Positions 3,101 through 64,000 are shown, numbered from the stretch's first letter. The stretch is 64,000 nucleotides of DNA from Psammoneis japonica (GCA_008632985.1 QPGO01000111.1:186001-250000), one strand, 5' to 3'. The notes: generated from the sequence alone by a model not told the origin. Numbers and translations: made by a program.

Positions 3101-3109
3101 CCCTGAGCA

Positions 3110-39518: not shown

Positions 39519-39644
39519 ATTGTCGCTGTCGCATGCAGCTATTACACTTGTTAAGATCATAGCATCATTTCGCAATGTTACTTGATTTTTGGTAATGGAT
39601 TGTGCGAAGGCGAGCAGAAAGCACCACCATCAGCGTGACTCAAG

Positions 39645-43767: not shown

Positions 43768-44234
43768 CTATGGTTCAGATGCGGGCGAAAGAGGCTTGAT
43801 CTGTGGGAGTGGTTCGGTGATGACTGATGATTTAGTGGGCGGCTTCTTGGCTTTGACTGGAGGGGCCGTAAATGTCACAGGCGGTAGCGGTTCGGCTATT
43901 ACTGCTTTGTTGGTCGGTTGCTTCTTTTCAGGAGGCTTGCCACCACGCTTGACGGGTCTTTCCTTTTTAGGCTTGACCCACTCAGGCTTTCCGCGCCCTT
44001 CTCTCTTTTCCTCGTTCTTCTTGCGCCCTGTCTTTTTCGGACGTTTCGCTTGTTGCGCTTTGATGCTTTGTTGCTCTTTTCGGCGGCGTCCTTCTTGGAA
44101 GAGCCCCAGCCCCGAAGCCCACGACGTGCTTTAGCTACAACAGAATCAATCGGTCGCTCGTTGCTGCCAATATCTACAGACATGTAGAAGACAGCGAGAG
44201 AGAACAAAAGGATGGCGGCAGTGGCAAGCTTCAT
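43768..44234 (-). CDS. Secreted Lys/Pro-rich protein, paralogue-like to the 42997 gene; frameshifted
   Basis: Signal peptide MKLATAAILLFSLAVFY, then RRGLRGW, a Lys-rich block and KPPEKK...EPLPPVTFTAPPVKAKKPP. Confidence 0.5.
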
Positions 44235-45329
44235 GATCACGAAAATTGTGAGGGACTTGACATGTCAACAGGTCACAACCATCATAAATTATTTAAGCCG
44301 CTCATGACCAGTTGATGACTGTTGACAAAAATGACCGGAAACACATTGCCGGTGGTGTCAATGTCTCATTTTTTGGGTGTAAGAATGACAACCACACTGA
44401 CCCACCTTTGAGCAATTTGTCAATGGCACATCGTTGTTTGGGGGAGCATTGAAAAGATTGGCTTCAACAGAAAAAAAGGGGCAGAAAAGGCAGGTGAGGT
44501 TCTTGGCCCCTTTTGCTGCTGCTGCTCAGAGTGTGCGCAAGAGGAGATTGGCTTGTTCACAGAATGCGCAGCAAGTGTCCTGAAACGGCCGCCGACAAAC
44601 CACCTCAGCTGCTCTGACCCTCGCTTTTCAACTTTTGTTCTGTTGAACTTCACGAGTTTTGTTGGCAGAATCAATCCATTGTCTGTGGTGTTGTTGGTTG
44701 TTGGTGGTGTCGTCATGAGAGTGATGGCGACACACGATTCAACACGCAAGATTGCTGCTGTGGCTGCCGATGAGCCATGCACTGGTTGCTCTTGTGCAAT
44801 CATTTATGCAACCAGTGTGTCACGCTGTTGTTCTGTTGTGCACATGCTCATCCTAACATTTTTGTTCTGCAAATTCCAGTGCATTGCTTTTCAAAAGATT
44901 GTCCAGCCCAACATCATGAAGCTCTTCTCAGTTTTGTGCTGAAGTCTTTTGCTGCTGCTGCTGCGCGCAAATGTTGTGATGATTGATGCCAAGAAGTTTT
45001 GTCCCAGTCCAAACCATGGCCTTGTGCAGACTGCCTTCCTCCATGACAATGTCGAGTGCCGTGTTGCACCCCGCATCGTTTCAAAACCGAGAGCACATTG
45101 CACGAAAAGAACCAGTTCACGCTCTTCACAGAGACAATGACAAGGCCGCAGCGGCAGCAGTTCCCAAGAAGAAGGAAACCAAGACATTTGCCATGCCTTG
45201 CAAATTGGACTTGGAAATCTCCATGTGTCATCTCTGCACTGCCACAGCATTTGGGACAAGGCATTTCACCAGTGCTCTGCCAGTCTCTTTTTCATTGTGG
45301 GAGCCACCAAGCTCAGAGTGTTGATGCTG

Positions 45330-45850
45330 GTGACAGAGCTGAGAACACCAACAAGAGTGGGCATGCCACACGGGTTGGGTGAAATGGTCTGCAAGGTTGA
45401 CAAGTGCACCCATGAAAGTGATTGGAGGCACAGCATGCAGCGCGGTTTTGGCAAGGCTGCCTTTGGCAATGGCAACTCGTGTGAAGGTGAGCACCAGTTT
45501 GATCCATGCCACGGTGGTGGCTTGTGCCATTGGACGCACCTGCGGTGGGGAGTTTGCCTTTGAAAAGCAACATGGCAAGGGCCAATTGGTGTGGCCGGAT
45601 GGCAGTCAGCACATGGGTGACTTGCACATGGACAGCGAGAAGGTGAGGGCGAGTGGTGTTGATTCAGAAGTGCTGGTTGCTGCAAGGGAGGATGGATGGA
45701 TGGCTTTTACGATGGGTGCAGGAAATGCTTGTGGAGCAATGGACATTGTCACAAGAGAGAATGGAAAGCAGGTGCCACACATGGCAAGGGAGTCGAAGCA
45801 CATCCTGATGGATTGATTTGACACGATGGAATGTGGGAAAATGACGAGCC
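45330..45850 (+). pseudogene. MORN-repeat gene relic within TpA-depleted DNA
   Basis: GFGKAAFGNGNSCEGEH, TCGGEFAFEKQHGKGQLVWPDGSQHMGD, GKCLWSNGHC: the MORN consensus G..YEGEW...HGKG with Y read as C/H. Confidence 0.75.
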
Positions 45851-45926
45851 TGTCACATGGTGATTGTGTGTTGTGGGGATCACAAGATTGGCAAAGTTGA
45901 TGCATTGAAACATGATGTGGTCATCA

Positions 45927-46274
45927 TCACAGACAAGAAGAAGGCAAACTCTTTTGCTTCATGTGCAAGTGCATGCCACAATCATCCGGTTGCAAATCTG
46001 CCTCAAGCATCTCAAACGGAAGCTCCTTGACAAGACAACATTCGTTCCGAAGACAGTCCAGCACAAAAGGAAAGGTGTCTGCGCTGCGATCGACAAACAC
46101 ATGTCCTTCATCATCCATCAAGGGAGGTCCACAGGGACCATCAGGGGCAAATGTTTGAGCAAGCATCGAGTCGCTTTCCACCATGAGTGTTGATCGCAAC
46201 GTCTGGAATTGAGTCCCGCCCATGGAAAGCTTGGCCATTTCATCATTCTCTTTTGGAATGATGCTGGGTGCCAT
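45927..46274 (-). pseudogene. BTB/POZ (KCTD/T1-type) domain relic
   Basis: AKLSMGGTQFQTLRSTL..DSMLAQTF..DDEGHVFVDRSADTFPFVLDCLR (consensus LNVGG..F.T..STL, FIDR, ILDYLR). Confidence 0.8.
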
Positions 46275-46995
46275 GGTGCTGTTGTGTGTGATCTTTCTTT
46301 GTGCTTCAGCAGCTGTGATTTGCCACAGATGAATCAAAACAATGCAGTTGTTGTGGGAAGTCAAAAGAGCTCAGGCCTGGCTTGAGCAGTCAAGAGCAAG
46401 TGGAGCGGCAAAACATGGATTTGCTTGAACCACGAATCAACCCAGAATCCAGAACAGAGTGCATGAATCAAATCAAGTCGAGTGAGTCTGCAGAATCATC
46501 TTTTTCTCTCCTCTTGGAAGACCTCCACTCGGGAGACAGGAGATTGCGTAGAAATCTGCGCAATCAGTGTGCAGCCTGTTTCTGCGCAATGTCTCACGCG
46601 ACCCTCTGCCTCTGTCTCCCTCCCAGATTTCAAGACGCTTTTTCGCAAATCAAGCCATTTCAAAAAAAAACACTGCACTTTCACTGCGAGAGCAAAAATG
46701 GCAGCTGGATTGCATTCGCCGCATTGAGTTTCGACAAGAGTTTGATGCCTGGCATGACCTTTTTTGCACCAATGAGGACATGGCACAACAAGCTTTGGAG
46801 CGAGTGGAGCCGGTGTTGTGGCTTCTGTGTTCAAGTTTTTGTGATGGATGCATCATGGTCAATCATGCTTGGAGCAGGTTTTGGAGGTCTTCTCGGAACA
46901 TTGTTGGGGTTTTCTTTGCGCTGATGGCAAGAGTCCATTCTCCCATGTCATTTTCATCTGTTCTGATGTTTGTTGACATGGAAATTGTTGATGGT

Positions 46996-47391
46996 GACGC
47001 GTTCCAGCCCTAGGTGGGAGCTCGTAGTGCTGACGTGTGACACAAATAATTTTTATCATCCGTCGCATGTTTCGCACGTACATTTCTACGTGTGATGTTT
47101 AAAAAAAATTGTCCAGACTTGCTGTTTTGCGAAGCCCCAGACGTTTTACATGACGCATTTATAGAAACAACAATGCGCCAGTTACATTCTTCAATGTCTG
47201 AAGAATGTAACTGGCTAAGTAAAAATCGATGTACTTCAATCATGTGCGAGTTTGTGCGTTCGCAAAATTGCCTCATTTTCTGTTGGCGAACATTGACATT
47301 CTAATTACCGTATAATTTTACTACGGAGCTCGCACGTAGAATTCTACGGGCCCAATGTCACACGGATTCCCACCTACGTCTGGAACGCGTC
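46996..47391. mobile_element. MITE (396 bp), same family as 36600-36990, opposite orientation, 4-bp TSD TGGT
   Basis: Left end GACGCGTTCCAGCCCTAGGTGGGAG, right end TCCCACCTACGTCTGGAACGCGTC. TGGT on both flanks. About 70 bp near-identical (reverse complement) to 36600-36672. Confidence 0.9.
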
Positions 47392-47442
47392 TGGTGTCAT
47401 CATGGTGCTCACTTCCTTTGGTGATGTCATTTGTTTCAGCAA

Positions 47443-47570
47443 GCTTTCATTGACCACTCAGTGGTTGGTGATTGCAGACTTTCGTTGACCACCCAGTGGT
47501 TGGTGACTACAGACGTTTTCGTGTCGGTCGGGCGGGCGGGCAGTCGGTCCGGCAGTCGGTCAGTCCATCC
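47443..47570. repeat. Duplicated ~35-nt palindromic unit followed by GTCG/GGCG microsatellite (Helentron/DINE-like end?)
   Basis: CTTTCRTTGACCACYCAGTGGTTGGTGAYTRCAGA x2, then gtcggtcgggcgggcgggcagtcggtccggcagtcggtcagtccatcc. Confidence 0.55.
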
Positions 47571-49537
47571 GCACTTGAAAGTGTGCCCCTCGGAATTTGG
47601 AATGGCATGGGTTGTTCAGCACAAATGAATTGTTTGGATTTGCAGAATGACCATTGAGGACATTGGAGGTCATGGGGACATCCTGAACATTCGACAAATT
47701 CCCTGTGATGGGTGCGTGGGAGCAGTTTTTCAGGAGAGCTCAAAAGTGCTGTCAAAATTGGGATTGCTGGTGTGGCATGTTGAAAAATGCATGGATCTTT
47801 GCACAAAGAGAATTTGTCATGAATTGTGCATGAAACAGTCACACTGAAAAAAAAACACATCAAACAACAAGCGTGTTTGTGCGATGTGCTGTTCTGGTGA
47901 TAAATTGGGGAAAAAAGAGTGCAGCATTGTGCACCACACTGCCGCTGTGGCCACTGCAATGCTGGCCCCAGCGGCGCAGTGCAGTGGGGGCCTGCCACAC
48001 GTGTGCACAGTCAACACAGCATGCAATGGCACAGACCTGCACCCACAGAGAAAGACAAGTGGTCAATGCTCTCCACAGGCTTGGCTTGGCTTGTTGTGCG
48101 CAGCATCACACAATTTTAGTCAGTTTTTGACCTTTTTTTGCAAAAAGCATTTTGCGCCCTCTTGAATTGACCAAAAGCATCTTAAAATCTGGGAGGCATG
48201 AAATTTGTTTGTGTCTTGGCATTTTCTTTGTTCCAAACACTGGGGAGTGGGAAGACCTCTGCCAGAGAGTGAGAGCGTGTGCGCACCCCTGGTTCATGCA
48301 CGACTTGCACATCCTGGATTCCAGTGCGTGGTTCGCACTGTGGAAAAACATGCCAACATGTGCATCTCAAATTTTGGAAAAATCTTTACAGCAAACACAA
48401 CAACAGCACTTTTGTTCTTCACATGACAACAACAACTCTCTCTGGCACAATGACAACTCATCCCAACAATGACTTTGCCTTGATGCGTGATGGACAATGT
48501 TGAGGTCCAGCTCAGCCCTGGCGGCACCTGCGTGAAACATCCCATCCCATGGCGAAATTGCAAGAAACAGCTGATGACGGACACACCTGTCAGCACGATT
48601 TGTGTCCGCAGTGTGACGTGGATTTGGAAATGAAATTGGCTGAGATGAAACAAAAACACCAAGAATGGCAAAAAGGGGTGCACAGCTTGTGTCTTGGCTG
48701 GAGGGTCATTGGCAAAACAGCCAGAGCCAGGTCAGGTTGTTTGATGTGAGCTTGAGCTCATTGCACAAATTGGCGAGGTTGTTTGCTCTTTCATTGATGC
48801 CAAGATGGTGGAGACAGAGATTGCTGAACTCTTGAGCAGCCAGCAGATTGTAAGAGTGATGCTGATTGCAGAGAGATCTGGGGTTGATCTTGCCAAAATT
48901 TTGGTTTTTTGTGGCATGTCGCTGTTGCCAATGAAGAGTTGCTCATTTTGACATTTGTCAGGGTGCATCTGGGACGCCAACAACCTGGGTTGTGTCCCTT
49001 TTGTCAAGAGTGTCTGAACACCACAGTCTGGTGATTTCCACATTTAATCCAAGAGCGGGCCTGTTTGACAAATCTGGGTTCATCAAATGTTTGACCCCAC
49101 AAATGTGCCCACCCCTGCAGTTGGCATTTTTTCACACTGCATTTGTGAGAGTGATGTGTTGTTTGTGTTTGCGTCAATTCCTGAATTGTGTGCAACACCC
49201 CACATTTCTGGATCCAATGCTTGGCAGTTGTCCATCAAGTTGGATTTTGTTGTCTTCCAAAATTTTTCCAACTGAAGCTGCCATCCATTGATTTGTGCAA
49301 CACCCTTGGTGTTGCTTTTTTTCCATTGTTTTTCAGGTGGCTGTCCTTTTTTTGCTGATTGCTTGCTTCTCTGGGTGGGCTGGCTTCAGCTTTTTGTGCA
49401 TTCTTTTCATTGTCACTCTGCAATGACACAACGGTGATGTCTCCTGTTGGCCTTGTGTGTGTCCTCATTGCAGTCGTTCTGGGTTCACTTCCAAATGTGG
49501 GCTTGGTCACAATGCTGCAGCGGTCATTGACAACGTT

Positions 49538-49672
49538 GGGTGGGAGCACATGGTGAAACCACTGCTGGAATGAGCAGTGGTGTTGGATGACACAGGGCAG
49601 GAGCATGTGGTGGAACCACCACTGCAACAAGCGGTGAGGTGGATGACACAGGGTGGGAGCACATGGTGGAAA
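49538..49672. repeat. ~56-nt tandem repeat, about 2.4 units
   Basis: Recurrent GGAGCAY(A/G)TGGTG...CCACTGC...GGATGACACAGGG. Confidence 0.6.
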
Positions 49673-51479
49673 TGGTTTGTCGTCCGCCACCACTCTCCTG
49701 GATGGAAACACTTTGATGTTGTTGCTGTTTCTCTGGACTGTTGCACAGTTGAGGAGGATGTGGTCATTGGCTGCAAAGCCTGCTGAACAACAAGATGTGT
49801 TGCTCAGCGATTGGCGCCGTGTGACTGACAGCGACTGCACTTTTGTTGCTCCCAACCAAACAAAACTGCCATTGAAGGTCAGCGCTTGCTCAACATGAGT
49901 GAGTTGATGTGAAATTGATGCAACCAGGATTTCCAACAACATTGCCGTTGCATGTGTTGTTTGAGTGGGTCACCCCAATGACACATGAGTGGGCCAAGCA
50001 ATGCCACAATGATGCGCAGTCAATTTTTCAGAGAAATGCATTCTTGTCAGCTCTCTTAGACTGGATGGGAAAATGAGTCACATGTGGAGGGATGGACAGA
50101 TTGACCAAAGCATGAGTCATCCAAAGTGACAAAAACAAAACACAGAAAGTGGTGAGGAACCCAACAACACATGGATGCCATGATGTGTTGTTGGCCACAA
50201 AGACGTGCTGGATGTCATCAAGCAGAAGTCATCGATTGGTGACTTAGCATGGCATGTTGCTCCTGATGTGGCTGCAATTGCATGAAGTGGCTTTGTGAAG
50301 GTGATGTCGAGCAATCCACATGGTCTTAGCTTGTGCAGCTGTTTCCTAAAATTTTTGCATTGGTCATGTGACATGAGCTTCCTCGGCATCTTTGTGTGAG
50401 AAGCTGGGTCCAAATTTTGAGTGCAGATGGACTGGATCTTCTTTGACAAAATCAACGGCTTTGGTTGACTTGTTGGTCATGGTTGCTCAAGGGAAAAAAT
50501 CAAATTCCTGCATGGAATGCTGGCATGCTGTGTTCTGTGGTGGTCCACCCAAAATCAGTTGGCGGGAACAAATTGTTGAGATGGAGATGGCGTTTTCTCA
50601 ATGAAAATGTGGCTCCATGGCACAAATTTTGCTTGGTGTGGGCATCACGATGACAGAGGAATGGCGTGATGTTGTCACAACCTGATGGACAGAGGGTCTC
50701 CATTTGACATTGAGCTCCACAGCATGACAATTTAATCAATGGGTGCACTCATCTTCAACATCAACCAAACGACCAAGTTTGTGGTGCAATTGTGCCTCTC
50801 ACCACGATGTTTTTGCAATTGCACACCTGCCCTGCATGATTCTCAAGACATTCAAGAATCACGCTGCAACAAAAAATGCCAAATGTTGTTGGATGGATTG
50901 CTTGACAAGTGTGCCACAAAATGACACAAAATTCCACAAAAGTCACACAGAGTGCACGTGTGCAACATGCGGCGCAATCCAAAAAACTGTCGATGTCACA
51001 GCTCAGCACTGCGAGGTTTTCCACCCAGAGCTGGAACACATCACCAGCACAATCTGCGGTGTGCTGGGACAGTGATGACAACACAGTGCTGGTCGGAAAG
51101 AAAGTGGAGGAGAGATCGGATGAGATCCTCTGCAATCCAGGTGTCCCAATGTCTGTCCATGGCCAGGGCAAGAGGAAGTCACTTTTGGGGGAAAACCTGG
51201 GTGATGGGGGCAGTTTGGCAGGAAGGAATGCCTGAAAGGGCTCAGGGAGTTGCCTCAAACTTGTTGACACTAAAGTGTCATGTGCGCCATTTGTGGCTGA
51301 ACAACTCATTTGTTGACAACAACATGTTTCATCACATCTGCACTCTTGCAGCCAAAAAAAGACATTTGGGCTGCTGCCCAACCTTCCCATGTGAACAAGC
51401 CACATTTTCACGACAAACAAATGGGCGTTTGTCATTTGAGTCATTCATTTCAAAAAGTCACAAATGCCAAGAAACTGAA

Positions 51480-52805
51480 GATGGTTTCAGCAAAAAAATT
51501 TTGAGGCTGATGGTTTCAACAAAAACCAACAGTTTCAACAGTTTTTGTTGAAACTGTGATGTCAGTGTTTTCAATGAATTGACTTGCTCAAGGCAAAATG
51601 AGTTGATGCGAGATGCCACGTGCTGACCTGAGCATGGAATTCTGTGTCAGATGAGATGTGTGTTTTGCACAAGTTGCCATGGTGGTGAGCGGCTGTTTTT
51701 GACAACAACTTCTTTTGACTCAATCACTGTGGAGTTGGCACCAATTGATGACATGAAGCACAAATGATGTGTTTTGCCAAGGAACTGACATGACATTGTG
51801 TGCTTGTTGCTTGAATGGACCTGCTGTGTCAACAGGATTTTTGCTGTCTGCTGCACATTGCACCACACAAAGTCAATGCACAAGGTGGCTAAACTGGATC
51901 TGCACGTCACATCAACAATCATGTGGACCAATTTTGATGCATCTGACTCAGCGGGGTTCTTGTTTGTGCGAGGTTTGATTTTTGAGCAAGGAGTCAAAAT
52001 GGCCTGAGAAAAGTGTGCAGAAACTTTTCATTTGAAGGTTTCTGAAATCTCCTTTTGACCCTTCAACCACCAGGGGAGCAAATCTCCGCGGGTGGAGATT
52101 TGCTCCACTTGAGGATTTGTGACATGTCATGCACTTTTGCGACAATGCAATGAACATGGCACAAAAATGTCATGTCAAGTGCAACCTGTGCAAAGCATGC
52201 CATGTGCACTCACTTGTTGGGAGAAGTGTGGTGTCATTGCTCCATTTGTGACAGCAATTCATGACAACCTTCATTGTCAAAGGTTGAGAGATTCAGCTCC
52301 TCTCCATTCACAGATGAAGCTTGCAAAAAAACCTTTGTCAAAAGTTGACATTGAACTTTCTAAATTGCAAAAAGGGCCCCCCCAGATTTTTGGCCGTGGA
52401 GATTTTCTCAAGTCCAGTGGTTGAAGGGTCAAGTCTGTGGTTGTTTTGCTGAACACAACAAGAAGATGCACCAAATGAACTGTGGCGGTTCCAATGGCAT
52501 CATTTGCATTGTCATAAAGTGGAAATTTGATGCTGCTGTGGGTGCCGCCATCTTTGCTCTCCCTTGTGTTTGTCATGCGTGTTGGCACAAGAACATTGGC
52601 AAGCATGGATCTCCAAACTGTGACTTCACTTTCAACATTCCAGTGCATGGTTTCAACACTTTTTGTTGAAACTGTTGGTTTCAACAGAATGAAAACTGTT
52701 GAAGCCGCGCTTGCTTCAACAAAACATTTTCAGCTTCAACAGAATTTTGTTGAGGCTGTGCAGCTTCAACAGATTTTTTGTTGAAGCCGTCAGTTTCAAC
52801 AATTC
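51480..52805. repeat. Two clusters of TTCAACA/TGTTGAA palindromic motifs flanking ~1.1 kb
   Basis: Cluster 51480-51558 (GTTTCAACAGTTTTTGTTGAAAC) and cluster 52647-52802 (GTTTCAACACTTTTTGTTGAAAC, GCTTCAACAGAATTTTGTTGAGGC, GCTTCAACAGATTTTTTGTTGAAGC). Confidence 0.65.
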
Positions 52806-54676
52806 TTTGACGTCTGTTGAGATTGTTTGACTCAGGCATTTGTGCCAATGTAAGTTGACATCATGTGAGGCAATGCACAGCACCACAACGGCTGTGTGTC
52901 TGCCATTTTTTGACTGGAAATGTCTTTTTTACGCAAACCAGTTTCACACAGTCTGGCAATGCACTTTCAACAGATTTGAGGTGAATTTTAGGGGAGGGAA
53001 CAAAAACGAGCAGATTGCGGCAATTCCGGAACTATTTGGTTTAGGCGGATGTGCTTTCTAGCACTTTTGATTCTGTCACGCGCTGTTGTCGATCCACTGC
53101 CGGAAGCACAGAACATCAATGCACTCAGTTGCTCAGTCTAAAATGATGCAACACCATGCATTTGGAGCTCGCTGCTGTTGCTGTTGCACACGGTTGCACC
53201 ACAGATTGATCTTCTTTGCTGCTGAGCTGGCGCTGATGTCCTCAGATGCAAGCTCGTCATCTCCCAGATTCTCGTGATCATCCTGCTGCTTTGTCGCTCA
53301 TGTGCCAACAAGCATTTCATGAGAAAAAGTGAAACCCTGAAATGTGAGTTACAAAGATGACAGTGCACAAAACTGAGCTGAGAGAAGATGAGCGGGTGAT
53401 CGCATGAACAACAAGATGCAATCGCACAGGTCTCACAACGAAAACACACACACCGGATGCGCGGCATCAAAAAAGAAAGATGTGTTGTCAATGTGGCAAT
53501 GAAAAGATGCTGCATCAATGTGGCAATGAATGAAGCAGCTGTTGAAGAGACAGCAGACATGAGGGTTGGTTGGGTGTGTCATCTGAACAAAAAGATGTTG
53601 CCAGCAGCTCACCGGTTGTGTTTCGTCAGAAAAAAATCAGGCGGCATGTGCTGCATGGCAACAAAAAGATGCTGCAGCTGCAGAGAAGCTGCAGCAGCTG
53701 TTGTTGATGAACTGCACTCCAAACTGTTGAAGCAGCAGCATTTGGCAGGTGATGTGTGGTGTCTCACAGTGCTGCAACATCTGCGGTGCACGTGGTGTGT
53801 CAAATCGCGCAGGGGTGCACGGGAAACTCCCAACGCACAATTTTTTCTTCTCATGTGTCTCAAGCACATGCACAAAGCAGCGTCATTCGTGGCTTTTCCC
53901 AGGGATTTCATGCTTCCGACAAAAATTGCAGCAAAAGGTGGCAATCCCGGGAAACTTTGGGGAATCCCTCGCAGCAAAACCAAACTGAAGGTCGCGTGCG
54001 ATGCGCCACGCTGGCACACACGACTCATGACTCACGACTCGGTCGGCTGACACATTGAACTGTGGCTCCTGTGTTGTGTGCATCCCTTCCATCAAGAGTG
54101 TTGATGATGATGTTTGAGCATTGTTGGCATTGGAGGTGTTCAAAAAAATCAAAGTGTGTGTGAAAAAGCTCCCCACACCTCTCAAACAAAATCCTGCCCA
54201 TGACAACTCTCAAAGTTCTTCCCACAGCCAACACACAACTGCACTGGAAATGGGAGGATGTCTGGCACATGGTCTGATGATGATTGCACAAGGACAAAAA
54301 TGGGGAAGTCTGCAGTTGACCTTGAACGTCGGAGAGGGAGATTTGTCGTGTGGGCACAATGAAACTGTGAGCCAGCCTGTCTGTAAAGTCGTTGATGAGG
54401 CCGGCTGTCCAGCAGTTCCTCCCAGCCAGATGGAAGAAGAAGAGAAAAGGAAAAGGAAGGAAAAAATAAACATCAACGAAGGTTTGAAAGGGTGCGCTGC
54501 AGTGCCGCAGTGTGCACAGCAGTGAAGACGGACGTAGACAGGTGCAGACGCGCTGCGTGGAATTTGGTGCGAAGTGTCACACATTTATGTGCGCAGAAGG
54601 ATGTGGATCACCAACGGCTGGAATGAAGCAGCACACCACACAGCAGTGAGTGCAGCTCTGTCATCACGGCGCTAGA

Positions 54677-55492
54677 ATGGCAGAGGACAACATCGTTGCG
54701 TCTGGCAAAGCAGAGGATGCAGCAGCTCCGGAAGTCATGGCAGAACTCACGGGCACCGAAGGCGCGGCGGCAGCTGCCATGACTGCACTTGGCGCCGAGG
54801 GAAGTGCCGAGGGTGTGTCCGTCAAGTCCGAACGCGCAAGGATGTCGGAGAAGCCGGCGCAGTCCCAAACTGAAAAGAGTGAGAAAGCCATGCCGCCGGA
54901 GCCAACCTTTCAAATTTGTGGTTGGAATGAAGCACAGCAGCTGGGTTGCACCGCCAAGCAGCTCCTTGAGGCCGGTTGCAAGATCGAGTTGGTGGGTGAT
55001 CAGGCCACCTTTGTGAAACCGGAGGTCCTGCCTTTTTGCAGCGGCAAAAGCGAGGAGGCAGCCAAGCCTGCGGCCAAAGTGGTCGCGAAAGCAACGGCAG
55101 AAGAGGAAGAAGAAGGAAAGCAATTTCCGGGCCCCAACGATCCGTCATTCGACTTGTGGGACTGGGTGTTGCGGCACGAAAAATCCGATAAATTCCAGGA
55201 GTCCATGTGCCTGATGAAGGATGCGCCGAACAATCCCGACCTCTGGTTCCCCGTGCTGGGAGAACTGGGGTGCATCAGGAGCGACCCTGAAGCCATCGCG
55301 AATGCTCACGGCGAACACTGCAAGTGGGTGTGGAGGTGCCGCACGGAAGTCGGCGAGAGGGGCATCCCAGACTCGACGCCGAAGAGCAACAAAGTGTTCA
55401 AGACCGCCGTCGAGGCTTTCGAAGCGGGGTGGTCGCTCGCACTGGTCTGTCTCGTGAAGAGAGCAAGCACAGAAGTGTGCACATTTGGATGA
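54677..55492 (+). CDS. Ala/Glu-rich ORF, probable N-terminal part of the SET-domain gene
   Basis: Protein-like, Tyr-free ORF overlapping the SET frame; probable frameshift at ~55470-55490. Confidence 0.5.
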   Translation: MAEDNIVASGKAEDAAAPEVMAELTGTEGAAAAAMTALGAEGSAEGVSVKSERARMSEKPAQSQTEKSEKAMPPEPTFQICGWNEAQQLGCTAKQLLEAGCKIELVGDQATFVKPEVLPFCSGKSEEAAKPAAKVVAKATAEEEEEGKQFPGPNDPSFDLWDWVLRHEKSDKFQESMCLMKDAPNNPDLWFPVLGELGCIRSDPEAIANAHGEHCKWVWRCRTEVGERGIPDSTPKSNKVFKTAVEAFEAGWSLALVCLVKRASTEVCTFG

Positions 55493-56136
55493 GGCGCCGT
55501 GTCACTCAACCTGCATTGTTTTGCCTCGAAAAGTCCGTTCGCTCTGCAGGCCTCAAGGAGGTGGAGTTGGGCGAGCTGCGCGCATCGCAACGGAGGGGCG
55601 CAGGCATTGGTTTTTTTGCTTTGCGCCAGTTCCAGAAAGGCAGTGCGGTTGGAATCTACGTGGGCCCCAGGGTGCCCGGTGCGACGAGGAGCTGCTCGTG
55701 GTGCGACCACAACAGCAAGTTTGGAGAAGACCACAGCGTGTGCTGCTCCACCATCCATGACAGCGAGGGCTGCCACGTCACAGTGGAGCCAAAACCGCTT
55801 GATTTTAGCGGTCCAGGGAACAAGAATTCCCATCCACTCCACCTCGGAATGCACTGCGTGAACGATGCCACCGAGTCATTCAAGGACAAGAAGAAGATCA
55901 AGGCAAGCCAACACGCGGACAACAACTGCGAGTTCTACAACGATGGGTGCTTGGCAGTCACGAAGCGAATCATGCCCGGGGAGGAATTTCTCTGCAGATG
56001 CAACTTGGACGAATCGGAGAAGAAGAAGAAGAAGAGGAAGGCGACGTCGGGTGCCATGAATCGGAAGAAGAAATCGTGTCTACTCCCCAAGTCGGGGGGG
56101 AGAAGCTCCACGTCTGGCAAAACGTTTGCCGTGTAG
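55324..56136 (+). CDS. SET-domain protein (putative lysine methyltransferase), hypermutated
   Basis: GAGIGFFALRQFQKGSAVGIYVG (SET-N GxG.FA...I.KG..I..Y.G), MHCVND (RFxNH-like), NNCEF, VTKRIMPGEEFLCRCN (I..GEEL..xY, with the Tyr read as Cys), basic tail. Confidence 0.8.
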   Translation: MGVEVPHGSRREGHPRLDAEEQQSVQDRRRGFRSGVVARTGLSREESKHRSVHIWMRRRVTQPALFCLEKSVRSAGLKEVELGELRASQRRGAGIGFFALRQFQKGSAVGIYVGPRVPGATRSCSWCDHNSKFGEDHSVCCSTIHDSEGCHVTVEPKPLDFSGPGNKNSHPLHLGMHCVNDATESFKDKKKIKASQHADNNCEFYNDGCLAVTKRIMPGEEFLCRCNLDESEKKKKKRKATSGAMNRKKKSCLLPKSGGRSSTSGKTFAV

Positions 56137-56358
56137 TGTGCTCTGTAAATTGGCAGCACAGTGTGTTGGTGTTTTTCAGCGAAACTGCAGCATCAGTTGG
56201 AAAGGCGCAGCCGCAGTTGTGGTTCGAAAAATGGGAACAAGGAAGAACAGAAAGTCGGTAAATTTGCACAAATCTGGTGAATTGGCAGGCACCTGCATGG
56301 TCGCCTGAGCACAGAAAGTCAGCAAATTTACGCAAATTTAGCAAGTTATTTTGTGCTG

Positions 56359-57792
56359 TCACAGTCGCCTGAGAATGGTCTCTTCCTCTAGAGAAAGGGG
56401 GATTGAATTGTTGTTCTTGCCCACTGCAGCACTCTTCAGGTAGAGAGACACACAGAAGAACTCGTCGTTTGAGTTTGTCCTGCTGGAGATGCAGTGGTGC
56501 TTGGTGGGGTTAAAAATGATGACATCACCAAGCCGGAGTGCAACGGAGATGCCTTCGGCAGGGAAGCAGAAGTGCGCCACAATCCCGTCATTCATGGTGC
56601 AGCTGCCGGACGGAGGGACTCCCACCACGGTGACTGCTGACAGGAAGAAGTCCTGGTCCCGATGGGCGTTGAGGAAGACATTGCGCCCAGCCGCCAGAGA
56701 GGAGAAAATGCCATCTGACCACACCAGGGATTTCCAGTTGTGAAACTTTTTGACACGAGCGACACCCTGGAGGATGGCATGGTCCACGTGCTCATTGACA
56801 AGGTGCTCCATGCGTGAAAGAAGTCTGGTGAGGTGGTGAGTGTGTTGGTCGGCTGTGCCAGGCTGCTTGCAAGAAATTCGAGCGTCCCTCGTGGCAGCCA
56901 GGCCAATCGTGGAACACTTGCTCCTGTCCGTCTCCATGAAGGCAACGCATTGTTTGCCGCGCACGGTGGACTGGGCGGTGCAGCATTCTAGTGCTTCGAG
57001 CGCTCGGCACTGAGCAACTGGTTCTGCTGGGTTGGGGGAGCTGAACACCACAGCAGAACGCGGCAGCAGGGTGCAGGTGTTGTCGCAGCGGCAACCGTCC
57101 AAGCCAAAGAAAGGCTTCAGATTGAGCACAGGGTCACAGACGACCAGAGGAGCCAATTCGGCAAAGTCAATGTCAGCAAGACAAGGTGGTGCAGGCTGAG
57201 TGTAGTCGCCGTTATAAACTAGAGTGCGGTCAGCTACGCAGTGCACGGAGAGACTCTTAGTGGTGCACGGTGCGAGTGGAACGAGGCGAGTGATCTTGGA
57301 TGTTTTCCTGCTGGCGCGGCTGCGGATTCGCCTGCGGCTGCGGCGGGCCTTACGAAGTGGTGGTTGAGCCCTCAACACGTTCTCACACATCCTGGTGCAC
57401 ATTGACGATGCGGTGTTCGCAGAGAACGTGTGTGCAAACTTGCCGGTAAATGTTCCGCTGCTTGACACTGTCACTGTCGTCTCAACAGTGCCCAAAGCAG
57501 AACTCTGTCGACAGGGACCGGCGGACTCCAGGGGAGTGGGGTCAAAACCCAATCGAGAGATGTGTCTGCTTTCCATTGCCTCAAGAGCACCCAAAGCAAA
57601 ACTCTGTTGACAGGGACTGGCAGACTCCAGGGGAGTGGTGTCGAAACCCAATCGCGAGAAGCATTTGCTTGTTGTCGGGCTGCGAGCTGCACGTCCCAAA
57701 CCCCCACACTGTCGAGACCGGCTGTAACTCGATCGCGACAAGTGCTTGTCGTTGGTGGGACGACGCAGCGAGGCACGAGGCAGTTGCGACAT
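56359..57792 (-). CDS. TET/JBP-like 2OG-Fe(II) dioxygenase, hypermutated
   Basis: IFSSLAAGRNVFLNAHRDQD (HxD), HFCFPAEGISVALRLGDVIIFNPTKHHC (GD...F...distal H), CVSLYLK. N-terminus has a 99-nt duplication (SRLGFDxTPLESAxPC x2) and an Arg-rich NLS-like stretch. Confidence 0.68.
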   Translation of the reverse strand: MSQLPRASLRRPTNDKHLSRSSYSRSRQCGGLGRAARSPTTSKCFSRLGFDTTPLESASPCQQSFALGALEAMESRHISRLGFDPTPLESAGPCRQSSALGTVETTVTVSSSGTFTGKFAHTFSANTASSMCTRMCENVLRAQPPLRKARRSRRRIRSRASRKTSKITRLVPLAPCTTKSLSVHCVADRTLVYNGDYTQPAPPCLADIDFAELAPLVVCDPVLNLKPFFGLDGCRCDNTCTLLPRSAVVFSSPNPAEPVAQCRALEALECCTAQSTVRGKQCVAFMETDRSKCSTIGLAATRDARISCKQPGTADQHTHHLTRLLSRMEHLVNEHVDHAILQGVARVKKFHNWKSLVWSDGIFSSLAAGRNVFLNAHRDQDFFLSAVTVVGVPPSGSCTMNDGIVAHFCFPAEGISVALRLGDVIIFNPTKHHCISSRTNSNDEFFCVSLYLKSAAVGKNNNSIPLSLEEETILRRL

Positions 57793-58158
57793 GGTGTGTC
57801 TCAATTTGAAATGTGTTTCAAAACACAACGACGGAAGTGTTGTCGCGTTGTTTTTGTCTCCGCGGAGGGAGGATCATCCCATGGCAATCTCAGTGCGAGT
57901 TCTCGCGTAGAAGTGCGTCACGTGCCGTGCCAGCTCGTGCGTTTGAATTGCACGGACACACAAGCACGGCAACGATGAGAAGCAGGCCGAGATTCAAAAC
58001 AAATTTTACCACCCAAAGGCGTCTCATCATTTCAACGCATCTGCATGTCTGTTTGAAATGACTTCATGCGTCGCTCCATGCGCAGGTAGAGGCAGCACGC
58101 CGCGTTTGAAAATTTTGCGCGCGCAGAGGGCGTGACGGCAATTTTACGCATTCTGCGC

Positions 58159-58974
58159 ATGTCACAGTTTGGTTTGGAAATGCGACATCTGGTCAAACCC
58201 GCTGCAAGCAAGGTTGATGTTGCCACAAGGTTGGATGCGATGAACCATCGTCACAGAAGTGTTGGGGAGTTTTATCTTCAAACGGCTCCGGACTCCGCGT
58301 TCCAGAGCAGGCGTGTCTCCGGAGACGGAAGCGGATCTTCGCACGGCGGCGAAGTTGGCTTCGCTTTGAGCAGCGAAGTGTTTTTGAACGAACGCCTTCT
58401 TGGCATGAATCACACCTGCGACACATCTGTCGACATGGGCGGGGGAGTTGCCGGACCCAGCATCGGGCTCAAGTTACTTCGTCGCCGTTGCACCATGGTG
58501 AGCATCGAGGCCGACCACGATCATCACCAAGAGGCTGTACGTTGGGCTCATCGTGCTGGCCTTTGCTCGAACGGCGGGTCAGAGTTGATCAGCAAGTCAT
58601 TCTTGGACGAGAGGCTGGCTCCTTTGTGGAAAAAGAAAGGACTCAAGGTGTTCTTCAACAACTGCAACTCCCGCATGGTCGACGACAAGAACACACAGCA
58701 GAAGGCAGAGGCGATGCTTTTGAAGTTGTGTCGTGCTGGGACCGTGGTGGTGGCGCTAGATCCGCTGTTCACGTCGTGCGCGGGAGAGTGGATGTGCGAG
58801 TCCTTCACAGCGGATTGCCATGATGGCGACTTTTTGTGGCACAGCGGAGACGTGAAACATCTCGTCTTCCACAAGTGCACCAAGAAAGAGGAGACTTCTC
58901 AGTCAACCAGCCAGCACATGCGACGTCCCACTCCGACACACTTGGAACGGAAGCATTTGCCCGTCGCGAAATAG
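58159..58974 (+). CDS. DOT1-like class I SAM-dependent methyltransferase, hypermutated
   Basis: SHGGEV (YGE), SVDMGGGVAG (motif I), VSIEAD (motif II), VFFNNCN (FVNN), LCRAGTVVVALDPL (GTxIVSL), in the order expected for DOT1. Confidence 0.65.
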   Translation: MSQFGLEMRHLVKPAASKVDVATRLDAMNHRHRSVGEFYLQTAPDSAFQSRRVSGDGSGSSHGGEVGFALSSEVFLNERLLGMNHTCDTSVDMGGGVAGPSIGLKLLRRRCTMVSIEADHDHHQEAVRWAHRAGLCSNGGSELISKSFLDERLAPLWKKKGLKVFFNNCNSRMVDDKNTQQKAEAMLLKLCRAGTVVVALDPLFTSCAGEWMCESFTADCHDGDFLWHSGDVKHLVFHKCTKKEETSQSTSQHMRRPTPTHLERKHLPVAK

Positions 58975-59196
58975 CCAATTTTGCTTAAGAACTCAACTGA
59001 ACTGTTTTTTTGCTGTCACTGTGCTGGACGTCACATGCCAGTTGCTCCACTCAATTCGCCATTGCTTTGCGGTAACGTAAAGTTGTCGTCGGAGATGGCA
59101 CACACTTGAAGAGACAGAGGAAAGCTGAGTTGCAATCGACACTTAGTTTGCTGAACATTTACAAATTTACACTGCACCGGCAAAAAAAAAAACAAC

Positions 59197-60069
59197 TCAG
59201 TCTTCGTCGCTGTCCTGAAGCACCAAGTCGTCATCGACGTTCAGGTCAACTTCGCAGTTGAGCTCGACATCATCGTCGGCATCTTCTCCAGCTTCTTCTG
59301 CCGGAGCTCCAATGAGACGACAGAGTTCCATGGGCAACGACCCCTCGTAGAAGTGACTGTGAAGTGAGTTCTTGTTTTGGGCGTGCCAACCGATGTGAAA
59401 CTGACCACCTTCCTTCTGAAGCTCGGTGAGCGCCGCCTCATTGCCGATCACTTCGGACCAAACAGCATCCTTCATCCAGAAGAAGTCGTCTTCAACGAAG
59501 ACCTCGGTGTTGTTCTCAGGGTCATCGTTCAGCTGCTTCGCAATGCACTTCCCGAGGCCGCGCACTTTAGCATCAGTTGGGACTTCTTCGAGGAAGATGA
59601 AGAAGAGACGCACGGCGCAGTTCTTGGCGTTCGTCTGCAACTTGCCCTCGTGAACCCACCTGCCAGCGCAAGGGTGGAATCCGACTTGAACCGCCCACGG
59701 AGTCCTGCTGCGAAGGTCATCAAACAGAACCTTCTCCGACCAAACATTGGTTGGAAGGGGATTCTTGGCTTGGAGACGAAAAACGACGCCTTTCTTGCGG
59801 CCGACAGTGACGGTGGCGCAGCGCAGGAGGGCGTCCTTGTCGGAATGGCTGCCATCGTCAGAACCGGCAGATTTGGAAAGCTTGAACCCGTGCTTGGCAA
59901 GGCAGTCTTCCGGTTTAAGGTCGTCGTCGGTCAAGCCGTTGGTCTTGCGGGGCGGACTTAGTTTCTTCAACAGAGCATCAGAAAACTTCGTCTTTGCCTT
60001 CTTCTGTTTGGTTTCGGCGACTTTGGCTTTCGCAGCCGGGGAGGTCGTTGTGTTTCTTTTGCGTGCCAT
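59197..60069 (-). CDS. Uncharacterised protein with basic N-terminus and acidic C-terminus
   Basis: 290-aa open frame from MARKRNTTTSPAAKAK to ...DDDLVLQDSDED; protein-like and very Tyr-poor. Confidence 0.65.
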   Translation of the reverse strand: MARKRNTTTSPAAKAKVAETKQKKAKTKFSDALLKKLSPPRKTNGLTDDDLKPEDCLAKHGFKLSKSAGSDDGSHSDKDALLRCATVTVGRKKGVVFRLQAKNPLPTNVWSEKVLFDDLRSRTPWAVQVGFHPCAGRWVHEGKLQTNAKNCAVRLFFIFLEEVPTDAKVRGLGKCIAKQLNDDPENNTEVFVEDDFFWMKDAVWSEVIGNEAALTELQKEGGQFHIGWHAQNKNSLHSHFYEGSLPMELCRLIGAPAEEAGEDADDDVELNCEVDLNVDDDLVLQDSDED

Positions 60070-60874
60070 CGAATCAGTCGGAGAGAATTTGTGGGAACAA
60101 AAAGTGCGATCGTTCAGAAGTGCCAAGAAAGACCCAGCAGAGCTGCGCACATCACACCAAGGAGAACTGGCAACGTCAGCAACCAGATTCAAACACGTCG
60201 AACTGCAACAAGGCAACCTTCCAGGTGTCAGCACTTGCAAGTGGTGCATGGGTTCAATTTGAACAAAACAGACACAAGGATCGGAGCACGCAAAGTCACA
60301 CTAAGTTTGCTGAAAATGCGCAAAATCACGTGCAATTCCGTCCATGCTTCGTGTGTGTTTCAGCCGTTGCTGCTGCGTGGCCATCGCGCACGAAATCTAG
60401 TCGCCAAACGGTTGACGCCATCGCTGTCACTGCATGCTGCACCGGCAGTTAGCCAAGGTGGGCCCATCACCCATTTGGAGGATTCGCACGCACTTTGGAA
60501 ACACGAATGACGTCAATCGCACTGTCATTGCCACACGACTAACTCAACTGCCCCGCCACTCGTTAAAGCGTGATTCTACGGAATTTACGCAAAGCTGCGC
60601 CCACCACCAAGATTGCCGAAACAACTTGAACAAGATCCGAATCTTGCCCCATGGAATGTTCAGAGCAGATGGTCAAAACAACTTGAACAAGATCCAAGTC
60701 TCATCCCATGGGATTTCAACGTTGACGAAACTAAGTGGGATGTTGCACGTCTGGTGCGAAGAAGGACGTGGGAGGAACGCACACGTCACTCTTCCGTCGA
60801 GGTGAAAGAGGCACACTTTCGTCACACTTTTTTGTGACAGAACCTTTGCGCAAAGGGAAACGAAAAGCATCCAA

Positions 60875-61553
60875 CTGCGGTGATTGGGCCACACCGATCG
60901 CAGTTCTCAGTTCTCACAGTGACCTGGCAACGCAGGTTGTGAGACAACGCACAAGCTCAGCTGCGGTGACTGGACGACACCAGTCGCAGCTCTCACAGAG
61001 ACCTGATCGCACAGGTTGTGAGAACATGACACAACGCTGCGGTGATCGGATGGCACCGACGCAGTTCGTCAAGCAACTAATTCACTTGGCTGCGGTGACT
61101 GGATGACACCAGTTGCAGCTCTCACAGCGACCTGATTGCACAGGTTGTGAGCAAACAACACAGCGCTGCACCTCGTAATGTAGGTTGTGAGACAACGCAC
61201 AAGCTCAGCTGCGGTGACTGGACGACACCAGTCGCAGCTCTCACAGAGACCTGATCGCACAGGTTGTGAGAACACGACACAACACTGCGGTGATCGGGTG
61301 GCACCGACGCAGTTCGTCAAGCAACTGATTGACTCGGCTGCGGTGACTGGACAGCACCAGTCGCAGCACTCACAGCAACCTGATTGCACAGGTTGTGAGA
61401 AGACGACACAGCGCCACGGTGAACGGGTGGCACCGACGCGGTTCGTTGATCAACTGGACAGAACCACTGCGGTGACTGGACGACACCAGTCGCAGTGCTG
61501 CAGGTGGCGAGAAAACACACATCGCTGTGGTGATTGGACAGCACCGATCGCAG
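60875..61553. repeat. Tandem array (~129-nt period) of about 15 bulged hairpins
   Basis: CTGCGGTGACTGGACGACACCAGTCGCAG-type units at 60961, 61090, 61209, 61338 and 61467, alternating with CTCACAG.GACCTGAT.GCACAGGTTGTGAG and CTGCGGTGATCGG.TGGCACCGACGCAG. Confidence 0.9.
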
Positions 61554-61640
61554 CTTCACGGTGATTGCACTGAAAAAACAACCATTTTTGCTGAGCAACT
61601 TCTTGAAATTTGTTGAGTTGAAGTGTCAGCTTCAATTAAA

Positions 61641-64000
61641 ATGGACGAGGCCAACTCCCGTGTTTGTGGTGCAATCAATGGAAAGTTTGAGATGCTTTGT
61701 CTACATGGAGATGGAGAATTTAGACCACACGCATGTTTGGTCTGTGACGTTCTGCTGAAACCTGGAGAAGTTTGCTGCTTGCCGCTCGAAACATTGGAAT
61801 CAGCAAGAAACTTGCTCACCCCTTCAGACTGGAACACCGTGTCTGATCATCTCAAGTCCTGCTGCACTGTAGAGCATGAAGATGCTGATTGGATCAAAGA
61901 CCTGCTGCTTTCTCCTCGCGCCCAACACGCTGTGCAGGAAGACAGACGACGCGTTGACGGATTCACTTGCTGCAGCGAATGCCGAAGAAGCCTGGGAAGA
62001 GCCGTCATGCCAATGCACGCGACAGCGAACAACTGCTGTTTCGGCACCCCGCCGCACGAACTGTTGTCTCTAACTGAAGCAGAGTTGGCAATGCTCACAC
62101 CAGTGAAAACATGCGGGTGCTGCTTCAGTCACCTTGGCGGCAAACAGAAGAAGCTTCAGGGAAGTCTGACATGCTACAAAGTCAAGATGCAAAGCATCGT
62201 AAGAACTGTTGTGCACTTCGACGTGCTGAATTTACATCAGGGTGTGATTGCACTGATGACTGGAAAGATGACTCCGGAGCAAAGACAACTTGCACGTTCA
62301 AAGAACAGGATTGGGACGCACTGCATGCTGAGGGTGATGGAATGGCTGTTGCACCACAACCAAGAGTGGGTGCACCAACAGACAAATCTAGACGAAGTCA
62401 GGCGCAATCTGCGGAATCCCGCACTTGTCGACAGCACCGGCGAAGAAGAAGGAGAAAATGCGAATGTTGAGACCTCAGAGTCATTTCACATTTGCTTTCC
62501 TGATGGAACCATGTCTCCTGCGACCGGTGGTCAGCGCAACCTGGACTGCTTCAAAGATCTTGCACACGAAGCTGCTGCCAACGGATTTGATTTAGAGGTG
62601 CAAGCACAGTTGTCCAAAGAATCTGCGAGTGATTTCAAAGGCAACAACTTCATTGACGCGTGTCTGCTGCAGTTTCCTTTTGGCAGAGGAGGAATCAATG
62701 AGACGAGAGTGAAGAAAGACGGAAGTCTTGCAGACAGCACCAACCTTGCACACTGTGCCGACCACCCAGCACGGATTTCCCAGCCTCACTTCCACGAGCA
62801 GCTCTTCGTGTTAATGTGCCACAACTTGACAATGAAGCAAAGGATGCTGCAGAGCGCAGGGTGGAAAGTCAGGGACAAGAATCAGGCTGCACAGTTTGCA
62901 AACGAACCAACAGTGGACGATGTGGACAGAGCTGTTTGTGATCGCAACTTGGGCGAGAGAAGAGATTGTGGACTCGGGCACCACTTTTTGCGTGCACTCG
63001 ACGTTGCATCTGCGTCTCTGCCACACAGTGATGAAGCAGCAAAGAAAATGAGGAGAAACGCTGAAACTTGTCAGCATCATTTTGGTCAGGGTGGCATTTT
63101 CTTAACTGTCAGTCCGGACGATGCAAATTCGTTTCTTGTGCAACTGCACTCGGGTGTCATCCTGGACCCAAACGAAGACGTGACACAACTGACGGACGAA
63201 ATTCTTGCTGGCAGGGCTGGGCAACGTAACGAACTGCGTCTAAAGTTTCCCGGTCTAACAGCCTTTGCATTCGAGTGCTTGTTTGACATTGCAGTGGAAG
63301 AGGCAGTGGGTTGGGATCTGAGTGCCAACCAACCAAGAGAAAACTTTAACTTCTACATTGGCAGGCCAGCCGCATTTTTAGCCGCAGTTGAGGAGCAGGG
63401 ACGTCCAACAGTGCATGGACACATGCAGATCTGGCTCACATCGATCAACAATGCAAGAGAGAAGCTGCATTCGCCAACAAGACAGATCCGACGCGAAGGT
63501 GCTGAGTGCCTCACCAACATGGTTCAGAAGATCTGCAGCACGGAATTGATCTGTGGCGAGGACTTCAGCACTAACGCGTTGCGTGAAGCATTCGATCATG
63601 ACTGCACAGTGCCAAAAATGTGTCGCACCTCTCCAAAAGCAGCAGACGACCAACAGCTAAGAAACCTGAGGCACAAAGACGGCCAGCAGTCGAAGAACGG
63701 AATGTTTGCTTGTTGTCGTCACTGCACCAAGTGCTGGACAAACGTCGAGTTTGTAGAAAGCTTTTTACAGTCACGGCACCGTGCACCTGGCCTGACTCGC
63801 CATCCAGACAACCATGCAAAGCGACTAAAAGCAATGTGTGTGCAACACCAGCAAAGTGGTCCGCAAGGGACAATGGAGGCCCATGTGCCGGATGCAGCTT
63901 ACAACCATCACATGCACGTTACGAAGTCGTGTTTTCCCAAATGCGCAGAGTTGCGTAAAATGTGTAAAAAAACCCCACACGAGGAACTGGACGTGCTGTC
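61641..64000 (+). mobile_element. Helitron/Helentron-type Rep(-helicase) ORF, N-terminal/HUH part; runs off the window end
   Basis: Stop-free frame (absent from the ORF track because it has no stop): ACLVCD, CCSECRRSL..MPMHATANN..GTPPHELLSLTEAELAML (DUF6570-like), LQFPFGRGG, SLPHSD..KKMRR, FGQGGIFLTVSPDD (Rep motif 1), AVEEQGRPTVHGHMQIW (HUH motif 2), NHHMHVTKSC. Confidence 0.88.

Follow-up and report, generated by a model that had tools for sequence, protein, structure and literature searches.

Does a transposon of a diatom-like alga carry its own set of DNA- and chromatin-modifying enzymes? The question is raised by the right-hand end of a 64,000-nt stretch of the Psammoneis japonica genome (GCA_008632985.1 QPGO01000111.1:186001-250000; hereafter the window, in whose positions all coordinates are given), in which a sequence-only reading had noted several compact, apparently intronless open reading frames (ORFs) in alternating orientation directly upstream of a Rep gene of the type found in Helitrons. 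On balance, we favor the interpretation that the block at 54.4-64.0 kb represents a mutated copy of a Helitron-family transposon that is present in many copies, with a cargo of epigenetic enzymes. The ORFs, called under the standard code, form two divergently transcribed gene pairs upstream of Rep: the first pair would combine a SET-like gene, weakly assigned, with a divergent TET/JBP-like 2-oxoglutarate (2OG)-Fe(II) dioxygenase, and the second a DOT1-like methyltransferase with the acidic-tailed protein of ORF5. The features of the block are as follows:

54400-54676 (approximate), + strand: left edge of the repeated unit, marked by steps in contig depth, in the observed/expected ratio (o/e) of CpG and in GC content
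54650-55492, + strand: ORF1, 280 aa, family unassigned; the ATG at 54677 from which it had earlier been read is in frame
55324-56136, + strand: ORF2, 270 aa, weak SET-like domain
56359-57828, - strand: ORF3, 489 aa, TET/JBP-like 2OG-Fe(II) dioxygenase
57491-57670: tandem repeat of a 99-bp unit (1.8 copies) within the divergent ORF3-ORF4 spacer
58132-58974, + strand: ORF4, 280 aa, DOT1-like class I methyltransferase
59197-60249, - strand: ORF5, 350 aa, family unassigned
60934-61495: array of tandem repeats (periods 129 and 248 bp) within the divergent ORF5-Rep spacer
61623 to beyond 64000, + strand: ORF6 (Rep), N-terminal 792 aa, open at the window end

The positions and orientations first noted for these ORFs stand, with the correction that the "SET" ORF resolves into two overlapping frames and is broken, or spliced, in this copy. 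Both convergent spacers are 222 bp long and relatively AT-rich, and each divergent spacer holds a tandem repeat. ORF6 matches the Pfam families DUF6570 (E 1.3e-9, 39 bits, cut-off 24.3) and Helitron_like_N (E 2.4e-9, 38.1 bits, cut-off 28.9), and by these profile matches it is a genuine Helitron-type Rep, in agreement with its earlier description as an HUH Rep. A PDB sequence search with ORF6 gave no match, and a Pfam scan of the block found no transposase or integrase other than Rep.

To what extent the block is repeated was gauged with the contigs of one DNA run (X1, which contains 45% of the sampled words), placed on 44001-64000 at a likeness of at least 80%; two other runs, X2 and X3, contain hardly any of the stretch. 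Exact contigs of single-copy depth (30.2-37.7) tile 44025-54424. The summed contig depth climbs from 280 in the bin 53339-54005 to 1693 in the bin 54006-54672, and in all 15 bins of 54006-64000 it lies between 1693 and 5249, roughly 60-150 times single copy by a rough measure that the tool itself warns against using as a copy number. The bins over the cassette upstream of Rep (ORF1 to ORF5) have depths of 2139-4430 and those over Rep 2286-4774, with no step at the ORF5/Rep junction. Because the depth rises across every bin from about 54.4 to 64 kb, the cassette and Rep are repeated together; the genes of the block are not single-copy host genes, and amplification has reached a similar depth in the cassette and in Rep. 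The contigs placed over these 20 kb, other repeats included, spread widely in their likeness to the window (1260 at 99% or above, 1713 at 95-99%, 2030 at 90-95% and 1127 below 90%), and transitions account for 713 of the 913 kinds of difference listed. The rest of the 64-kb window contains neither a further copy of the block nor a piece of one.

The base composition was compared along the same region. All 11 sub-segments of 54.7-64 kb have a TpA o/e of 0.03-0.33, a CpG o/e of 0.64-1.33 and a GC content of 0.43-0.59, as against 0.09, 0.46 and 0.47, respectively, in the left flank (44001-54400); the only compositional step, a rise in CpG o/e and GC, lies near 54.4 kb, and none is present at the ORF5/Rep junction. 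The shared erosion of TpA, formerly read as the mark of a single repeat unit, is real (o/e 0.03-0.33 across 54.6-64 kb versus about 0.6 where the window bears genes), but as an argument for one unit it is weak, being common to all repeats of the window, with other islands even more depleted than the block. What sets the block apart is its retained CpG and its higher GC.

These data bear on an improbable competitor of the cargo interpretation, under which two separate repeats lie side by side, the cassette belonging to some other mobile or amplified unit into or beside which the Helitron has inserted, with no role of Rep in mobilizing the cassette. The level depth of the four bins that surround the junction near 60-62 kb (3047, 3915, 5249 and 4173), the uniformity of TpA, CpG and GC over the junction and the position of Rep as the only transposase- or integrase-type gene found in the block all argue against such a juxtaposition, whereas the lack of visible termini, the 1.4-kb spacer with its tandem array that parts ORF5 from Rep, the prevalence of nested repeats in the nearby window and the shortness of the contig pieces, the longest of which in the block measures 418 nt so that none bridges the genes in other copies, speak in its favor. 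We conclude that the cassette is likely, though unproven, cargo of the Helitron.

A more basic question is whether the ORFs are genes at all. The block is extremely poor in TpA (o/e 0.16), so TAA and TAG are rare (60 and 53 occurrences on both strands, versus 339 of TGA) and long chance ORFs are to be expected; indeed, many overlapping ORFs of 100-200 aa occur in all frames. We simulated the same 9.6 kb with Markov models, of order 1 and of order 2, in which the low TpA content is preserved. The longest stop-to-stop frame had a median of 240 and 264 aa, respectively, with 95% limits of 342 and 374 aa, and frames of at least 280 aa arose 0.22 and 0.42 times per 9.6 kb, versus six observed (794, 504, 367, 294, 281 and 280 aa). 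A lone ORF of 280 aa is thus not significant in itself, and it is homology together with codon statistics that carries the case for coding. In a codon-usage log-likelihood test, trained on the homology-supported ORFs with leave-one-out, the ORF's own frame scores highest for ORF1 (+0.108 per codon), ORF2 (+0.067), ORF4 (+0.067), ORF5 (+0.164) and ORF6 (+0.019), as well as for the C-terminal 312 codons of ORF3 (+0.059). Over the first 177 codons of ORF3, a stretch that contains the 99-bp repeat, the own frame is not the highest (-0.057) and a coding signal is absent. That the ORFs are accidents of TpA depletion, a notion to which this last stretch and the scarcity of TAA and TAG lend some color, is scarcely credible in view of the excess of long frames, their own-frame codon scores, homologues at E values of 1e-30 and 8e-71 and the Pfam matches of Rep; for ORF3, ORF4 and ORF6, the homologues and, for Rep, the Pfam matches rule it out. 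ORF1 and ORF5 also look coding.

Which families do the cassette genes belong to? ORF3 has two homologues among 8000 scored candidates of a large protein database, namely a metagenome protein of 335 aa (P0001; E 8.5e-31, 30% identical) and a protein of 595 aa from the diatom Seminavis robusta (P0002; E 1.8e-29), and a second database search with a four-sequence profile returned the same two dioxygenase homologues and none further. The homology-supported part of ORF3 covers about 56359-57300, and its true start probably lies further in, perhaps near 57414, because the first 177 codons lack a coding signal. An alignment of the three sequences shows the invariant stretches LN.H.DQDF, FNP...HC.SSR and SLYLK; the HxD...H triad of ORF3 (H389, D391 and H445, the ligands being assigned by motif) is invariant, as are R450 and K465. 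In TET/JBP enzymes the 2OG-binding arginine lies on the last strand in an RxS-type motif. The string CVSLYLK, about which the sequence-only reading had cautioned in this connection, is present, and its SLYLK is invariant in the three sequences, with the usual arginine position, two residues before SLYLK, occupied by C, S and C. An invariant R sits five residues past the distal histidine, and SLYLK itself ends in an invariant K.

ORF3 found no match in PHROGs and nothing useful in PDB sequence searches. In the Atlas, the nearest relatives of P0002 are three unnamed diatom clusters of 50-69 members; 23 of its 30 feature matches fall in a Tet_JBP-bearing set (score 0.94; in the listed cluster 13% of the members carry the family), and its structure rows include three Tet_JBP clusters with template-modelling (TM) scores of 0.51-0.69, which together provide a lead rather than a test. 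For structural comparison we used an AlphaFold2 (AF2) model of P0001, built from a four-sequence alignment and of low confidence (predicted local distance difference test, pLDDT, 44.3; predicted TM score, pTM, 0.48). Foldseek searches with this model gave NgTET1 or CcTet as all of the top 10 matches (E 3e-5 to 2e-4), and in VIA-align the top 16 were TET2, NgTET1, CcTet and CMD1 (Z 10.9-12.1), with other 2OG oxygenases at 10.2 or below. A search of 48,161 chains independent of Foldseek ranked TET2, NgTET1, CcTet and CMD1 first to fourth (Z 12.0, 12.0, 10.9 and 10.9; next 9.8), and all 50 matches listed were 2OG oxygenases or proteins under that fold. Hence, the identification of ORF3 as a 2OG-Fe(II) dioxygenase is well supported. 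Its placement in the TET/JBP clade, which the initial inspection had suggested and which the motif, the Atlas lead and the fold searches now bear out, is most probable and moderately supported, given a margin of 1-2 Z units obtained with a weak model of a homologue only 30% identical.

A fragment of a related gene is present in a metagenome eukaryote (L003:7550-7852; also L001 and L002), where an exon 44% identical to residues 374-451 of ORF3 breaks off past the distal His-Cys, where an intron probably begins; its neighbor is a large gene, unrelated and rich in repeats. The three loci represent one dioxygenase fragment at a contig end and are uninformative on linkage.

An exhaustive HMMER search with ORF4 recovered 11 relatives at E values of 0.001 or below, the best being P0003 (53% identity, E 8.2e-71). 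The start and length of P0003 indicate that the true start of ORF4 is likely the ATG at 58240, giving a protein of 244 aa; tblastn with P0003 matches 58240-58962. The Pfam family DOT1 (cut-off 23 bits) is reached by three of the 11 relatives (P0005 with 29.6, P0012 with 23.5 and P0008 with 23.0 bits), is below cut-off in P0006 and P0007 and is absent in the other six, some of which show weak matches to other class I methyltransferase families. A profile of the ORF4 family run against the PDB places the DOT1 chain 9ne1_A first (E 3.5e-8); the DOT1 chain 8fjm_A (E 1.8e-5) comes lower down, as do numerous DOT1L entries with E values close to 0.005. The family alignment conserves a GE stretch, a VDxGGG motif (in which G103 and G105 are invariant and V100 and D101 nearly so), the acidic residue E126 past strand 2 and FFNN (F175, N176, N177); VDxGGG and FFNN would correspond to the S-adenosylmethionine (SAM)-binding motif I of DOT1 and its NN motif near the lysine channel. 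With the DOT1 H3K79 methyltransferases (PF08123; PDB 9ne1, 8fjm, 1nw3 and 1u2z) the family shares profile matches and, presumably, the GE, DxGGG and FFNN stretches, but ORF4 is short (244-280 aa) and has no recognizable nucleosome-binding extension. At the level of the family profile, "DOT1-like", as the protein had already been called, appears a fair label. Three relatives (P0004, P0006 and P0007) are 606-640 aa long, with a conserved C-terminal extension of about 350 aa and faint matches to other methyltransferase families near residues 384-456; these may be two-domain forms of the DOT1-like family.

The distribution of these families bears on two further explanations of the block. Members of both the dioxygenase and the DOT1-like families are also found elsewhere, among ordinary predicted proteins, and the L003 homologue of the dioxygenase sits beside a large unrelated gene on its metagenome contig, as one might expect if the cassette were a cluster of host chromatin modifiers, amplified segmentally or in tandem and abutting a Helitron, rather than mobile cargo. 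We consider this quite unlikely, since the block lies far above single-copy depth, the contigs over the 20 kb spread widely in divergence and the block bears a repeat-specific hypermutation signature from which the host genes of the window are free. SET, DOT1 and TET/JBP homologues are also known from Nucleocytoviricota, and one Tet_JBP cluster of the Atlas is 100% Nucleocytoviricota; DOT1 and SMYD homologues are reported in Mimiviridae in a preprint (10.1101/2021.11.30.470311). The block could be what is left of an inserted giant virus or other virus, amplified later. This origin is very unlikely: the Pfam scan found no viral hallmark gene in the block, its replication gene is a Helitron Rep, and no relative turned up in three viral-contig scans, for which the queries were the dioxygenase alignment, P0003 and Rep.

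The remaining genes of the cassette are less clear. The frame that starts at 54677 is closed by the TGA at 55490-55492; it is a separate, overlapping frame, that of ORF2, which contains the SET-like stretch (residues 94-224, about nt 55603-55995). SET domains possess an NH(S/C) SAM-binding motif and a C-terminal catalytic tyrosine. ORF2 has a GxG...YxG start and a GEEFL end and reads GMHCVND and GEEFLCRC; the NH pair is absent, and a cysteine stands where the tyrosine is expected, in a copy that is hypermutated and in which tyrosine codons contain TA. The SET identity of ORF2 is a weak lead. ORF1, which has no Pfam, PHROGs or PDB match, may be the N-terminal part of the same SET-like gene, cut by the TGA at 55490-55492; in one X1 contig (depth 477 of 1955), an additional T past 55505 would shift the frame of ORF1 into that of ORF2, and 84 GT..AG candidates would fit an intron joining the two, a number that is not decisive. 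ORF5, with a likely start at ATG 60069, has a basic N-terminal stretch and an acidic tail; it has no homologue among 3711 candidates of similar length and no Pfam, PHROGs or PDB match.

Several observations weigh against reading the block as a Helitron that carries three epigenetic enzymes. Helitron termini begin with TC at the 5' end and end with CTRR and a hairpin at the 3' end, and insertion occurs without target duplication; reading 54200-54800 for such a terminus yielded none that could be assigned, and as ORF6 runs past 64000 the PIF1-like helicase expected C-terminal to Rep and the 3' terminus lie beyond view; nor is the target site visible. No second full copy is readable, nor is co-linearity of the cassette with Rep seen elsewhere, and to the roughness of the depth measure is added an unrelated bin (52005-52671) of similar depth (3313). 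As for the enzymes, Pfam Tet_JBP has no match at E values up to 1 in ORF3, P0001 or P0002, the usual position of the 2OG-binding arginine holds C or S, and the structural evidence comes from the low-confidence model of a homologue, the AF2 model of ORF3 itself being poor (pLDDT 31.5). ORF4 alone has no PDB or Pfam match, and among the PDB matches of its family profile a methyltransferase other than DOT1 ranks second (2b25_A, E 2e-6). The SET match of ORF2 spans positions 1-102 of the 105 of the Pfam profile at E 0.074 and 13.9 bits (cut-off 22.4), and its best PDB lead in phmmer is the PR/SET domain of MECOM (E 1.6). Finally, the window copy is damaged: its SET gene is split, and many tyrosines of the homologues read histidine or cysteine.

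This damage belongs to a wider pattern in the window. In the islands 1-3000, 15000-17000 and 44000-54400 (and, for TpA only, 54400-64000), TpA o/e falls to 0.01-0.1, CpG o/e to 0.08-0.6 and TG+CA o/e rises to 1.6-1.95, versus about 0.6 for TpA and 0.9-1.0 for CpG in the surrounding DNA. Transitions in repeats seem to drive both CpG and TpA to CpA/TpG, and the process looks like repeat-induced point mutation with an unusual T-to-C/A-to-G arm; literature searches found no description of such TpA-plus-CpG hypermutation of repeats. A 94-nt repeat pair of 81% identity gives the direction of the process: relative to 36660-36753, which lies in normal DNA and keeps its TA and CG, the island copy at 50712-50805 has CA or TG at nine TA sites and two CG sites, with no reverse change among 18 differences. 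A unit of about 2.03-2.13 kb that is repeated three times in tandem at 17693-22797, in copies that are 60-88% alike and each have an ORF of 347-390 aa of no Pfam family, also reveals directional TpA loss, the third copy having 21 TA-to-TG/CA changes relative to the second versus two in reverse; for the most part these copies show ordinary divergence and have no bearing on the block. Host genes of normal dinucleotide content lie at 24206-27013, 28413-29855 and 38367-39518 and encode a PPR-repeat protein, a carbamoyltransferase and a ThrE-family exporter, respectively. The segments 46669-48002 and 50671-51337 form a very abundant short repeat family, with X1 depths of 35,000-52,000 and 18,000 versus about 35 for single copy; an inverted 74-nt match pairs 36599-36672 with 47319-47392, and a strand-switching joint connects 47320 and 50729.

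In the block itself, 15 positions are listed at which all other contigs differ from the window copy (about 900 further differences exist). Six of these are CpG elsewhere and TpG or CpA here, three are TpA elsewhere and CpA or TpG here, two positions make up one ambiguous doublet and four are other changes. The window copy is thus a decaying, mutated and probably dead one, although ORF3 retains its catalytic-looking residues and ORF4 its SAM motif.

What might such a cargo do for an intact element? By analogy with the fungal TET-carrying transposons, the element would, if its genes are expressed and have the activities predicted for them, use its own chromatin- and DNA-modification enzymes to change the marks laid on it. 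The dioxygenase would oxidize methylated or plain pyrimidines in the element's DNA, removing or recoding methyl marks, and the DOT1-like enzyme, perhaps with the SET enzyme, would write histone-lysine marks that bias the element's chromatin; the combined marks would delay its silencing. H3K79 methylation of the DOT1 type goes with active chromatin, an association established for DOT1 proper, not for the ORF4 family. Later, the window copy would have been struck by the repeat-directed transition hypermutation (TpA to CpA/TpG, CpG to TpG/CpA). A doubtful extension of this scheme would tie the TET/JBP-like enzyme itself to the repeat-specific TpA and CpG hypermutation, as part of a three-enzyme kit that rewrites DNA and histone marks. 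In one version it would be a JBP-like thymine oxidase, whose product, 5-hydroxymethyluracil or 5-formyluracil, mispairs with G and yields T-to-C changes at TpA. In the other it would be a counter-defence enzyme that keeps the CpGs of the element unmethylated, which would explain why the block has a CpG o/e of about 0.87, versus 0.2-0.5 in neighboring repeats of similar TpA loss; against this latter version, six of the 15 listed differences are CpG decay in the window copy and three are TpA decay.

How does the element compare with known systems? The combination had at first been presented as unfamiliar from Helitrons, which overstates its novelty: a recent survey (Kojima 2025, PMC12730594) places TET/JBP genes in 11 fungal DNA-transposon lineages, including Helitron1 (in Puccinia graminis and Pezizales) and Helitron2 (in Agaricus bisporus), and cites SET genes in the HarbingerS and MuDR DNA transposons of the oomycete Phytophthora. 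The same survey states that the TET-carrying transposons encode no further modification protein, and proposes for those of fungi an anti-silencing or anti-hypermutation role, there untested. The P. japonica element resembles the fungal TET Helitrons, as described in that source, in having a Rep and a separate gene for a TET/JBP-type dioxygenase, in its multi-copy state in a genome that hypermutates repeats and in the anti-silencing role proposed for it. It differs from them in its host, a diatom-like alga, in a dioxygenase too divergent for Pfam Tet_JBP and, going by that survey's statement, in the two further candidate chromatin enzymes and the unassigned gene that accompany the dioxygenase. 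A TET/JBP passenger is likewise shared with the KDZ (Kyakuja-Dileera-Zisupton) and other DDE transposons of Basidiomycota (PMC12730594), and CcTet, which that survey links to Kyakuja, is among the best structural matches of the P0001 model; those elements have a DDE transposase in place of the HUH Rep and a single passenger enzyme. The Phytophthora HarbingerS and MuDR elements share, on the survey's account, a stramenopile host and a SET gene within a DNA transposon, the SET gene being a weak lead here, and belong to another transposon superfamily. More broadly, a preprint (10.1101/2021.11.30.470311) lists 823 fusions of chromatin and transposon genes, mostly with Chromo, PHD, SNF2_N and SET domains. 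In a literature search, none of the listed titles and beginnings of abstracts concerned a DOT1-like gene carried by a Helitron, and another search found no paper on TET/JBP in diatom transposons. What appears to be new here is the lineage of the host, the divergent family of the dioxygenase and the combination of three genes, one of them for a DOT1-like enzyme.

Retrotransposons with cytosine DNA methyltransferases are known in dinoflagellates and charophytes. These likewise carry an epigenetic enzyme of their own, with both the class of element and the enzyme being different. Epigenetic enzymes on transposons show how mobile DNA fights silencing. If the cassette is indeed cargo of the Helitron, this phenomenon would reach a diatom-like alga, beyond the so far mainly fungal transposons, and a DOT1-like enzyme would be added to it, so that one element would combine modifiers acting at the level of DNA and of histones. 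The divergent TET-like family, invisible to Pfam and without the usual arginine position, could differ in its substrate or in its mode of cofactor use, and the TpA-plus-CpG hypermutation of repeats deserves a study of its own.

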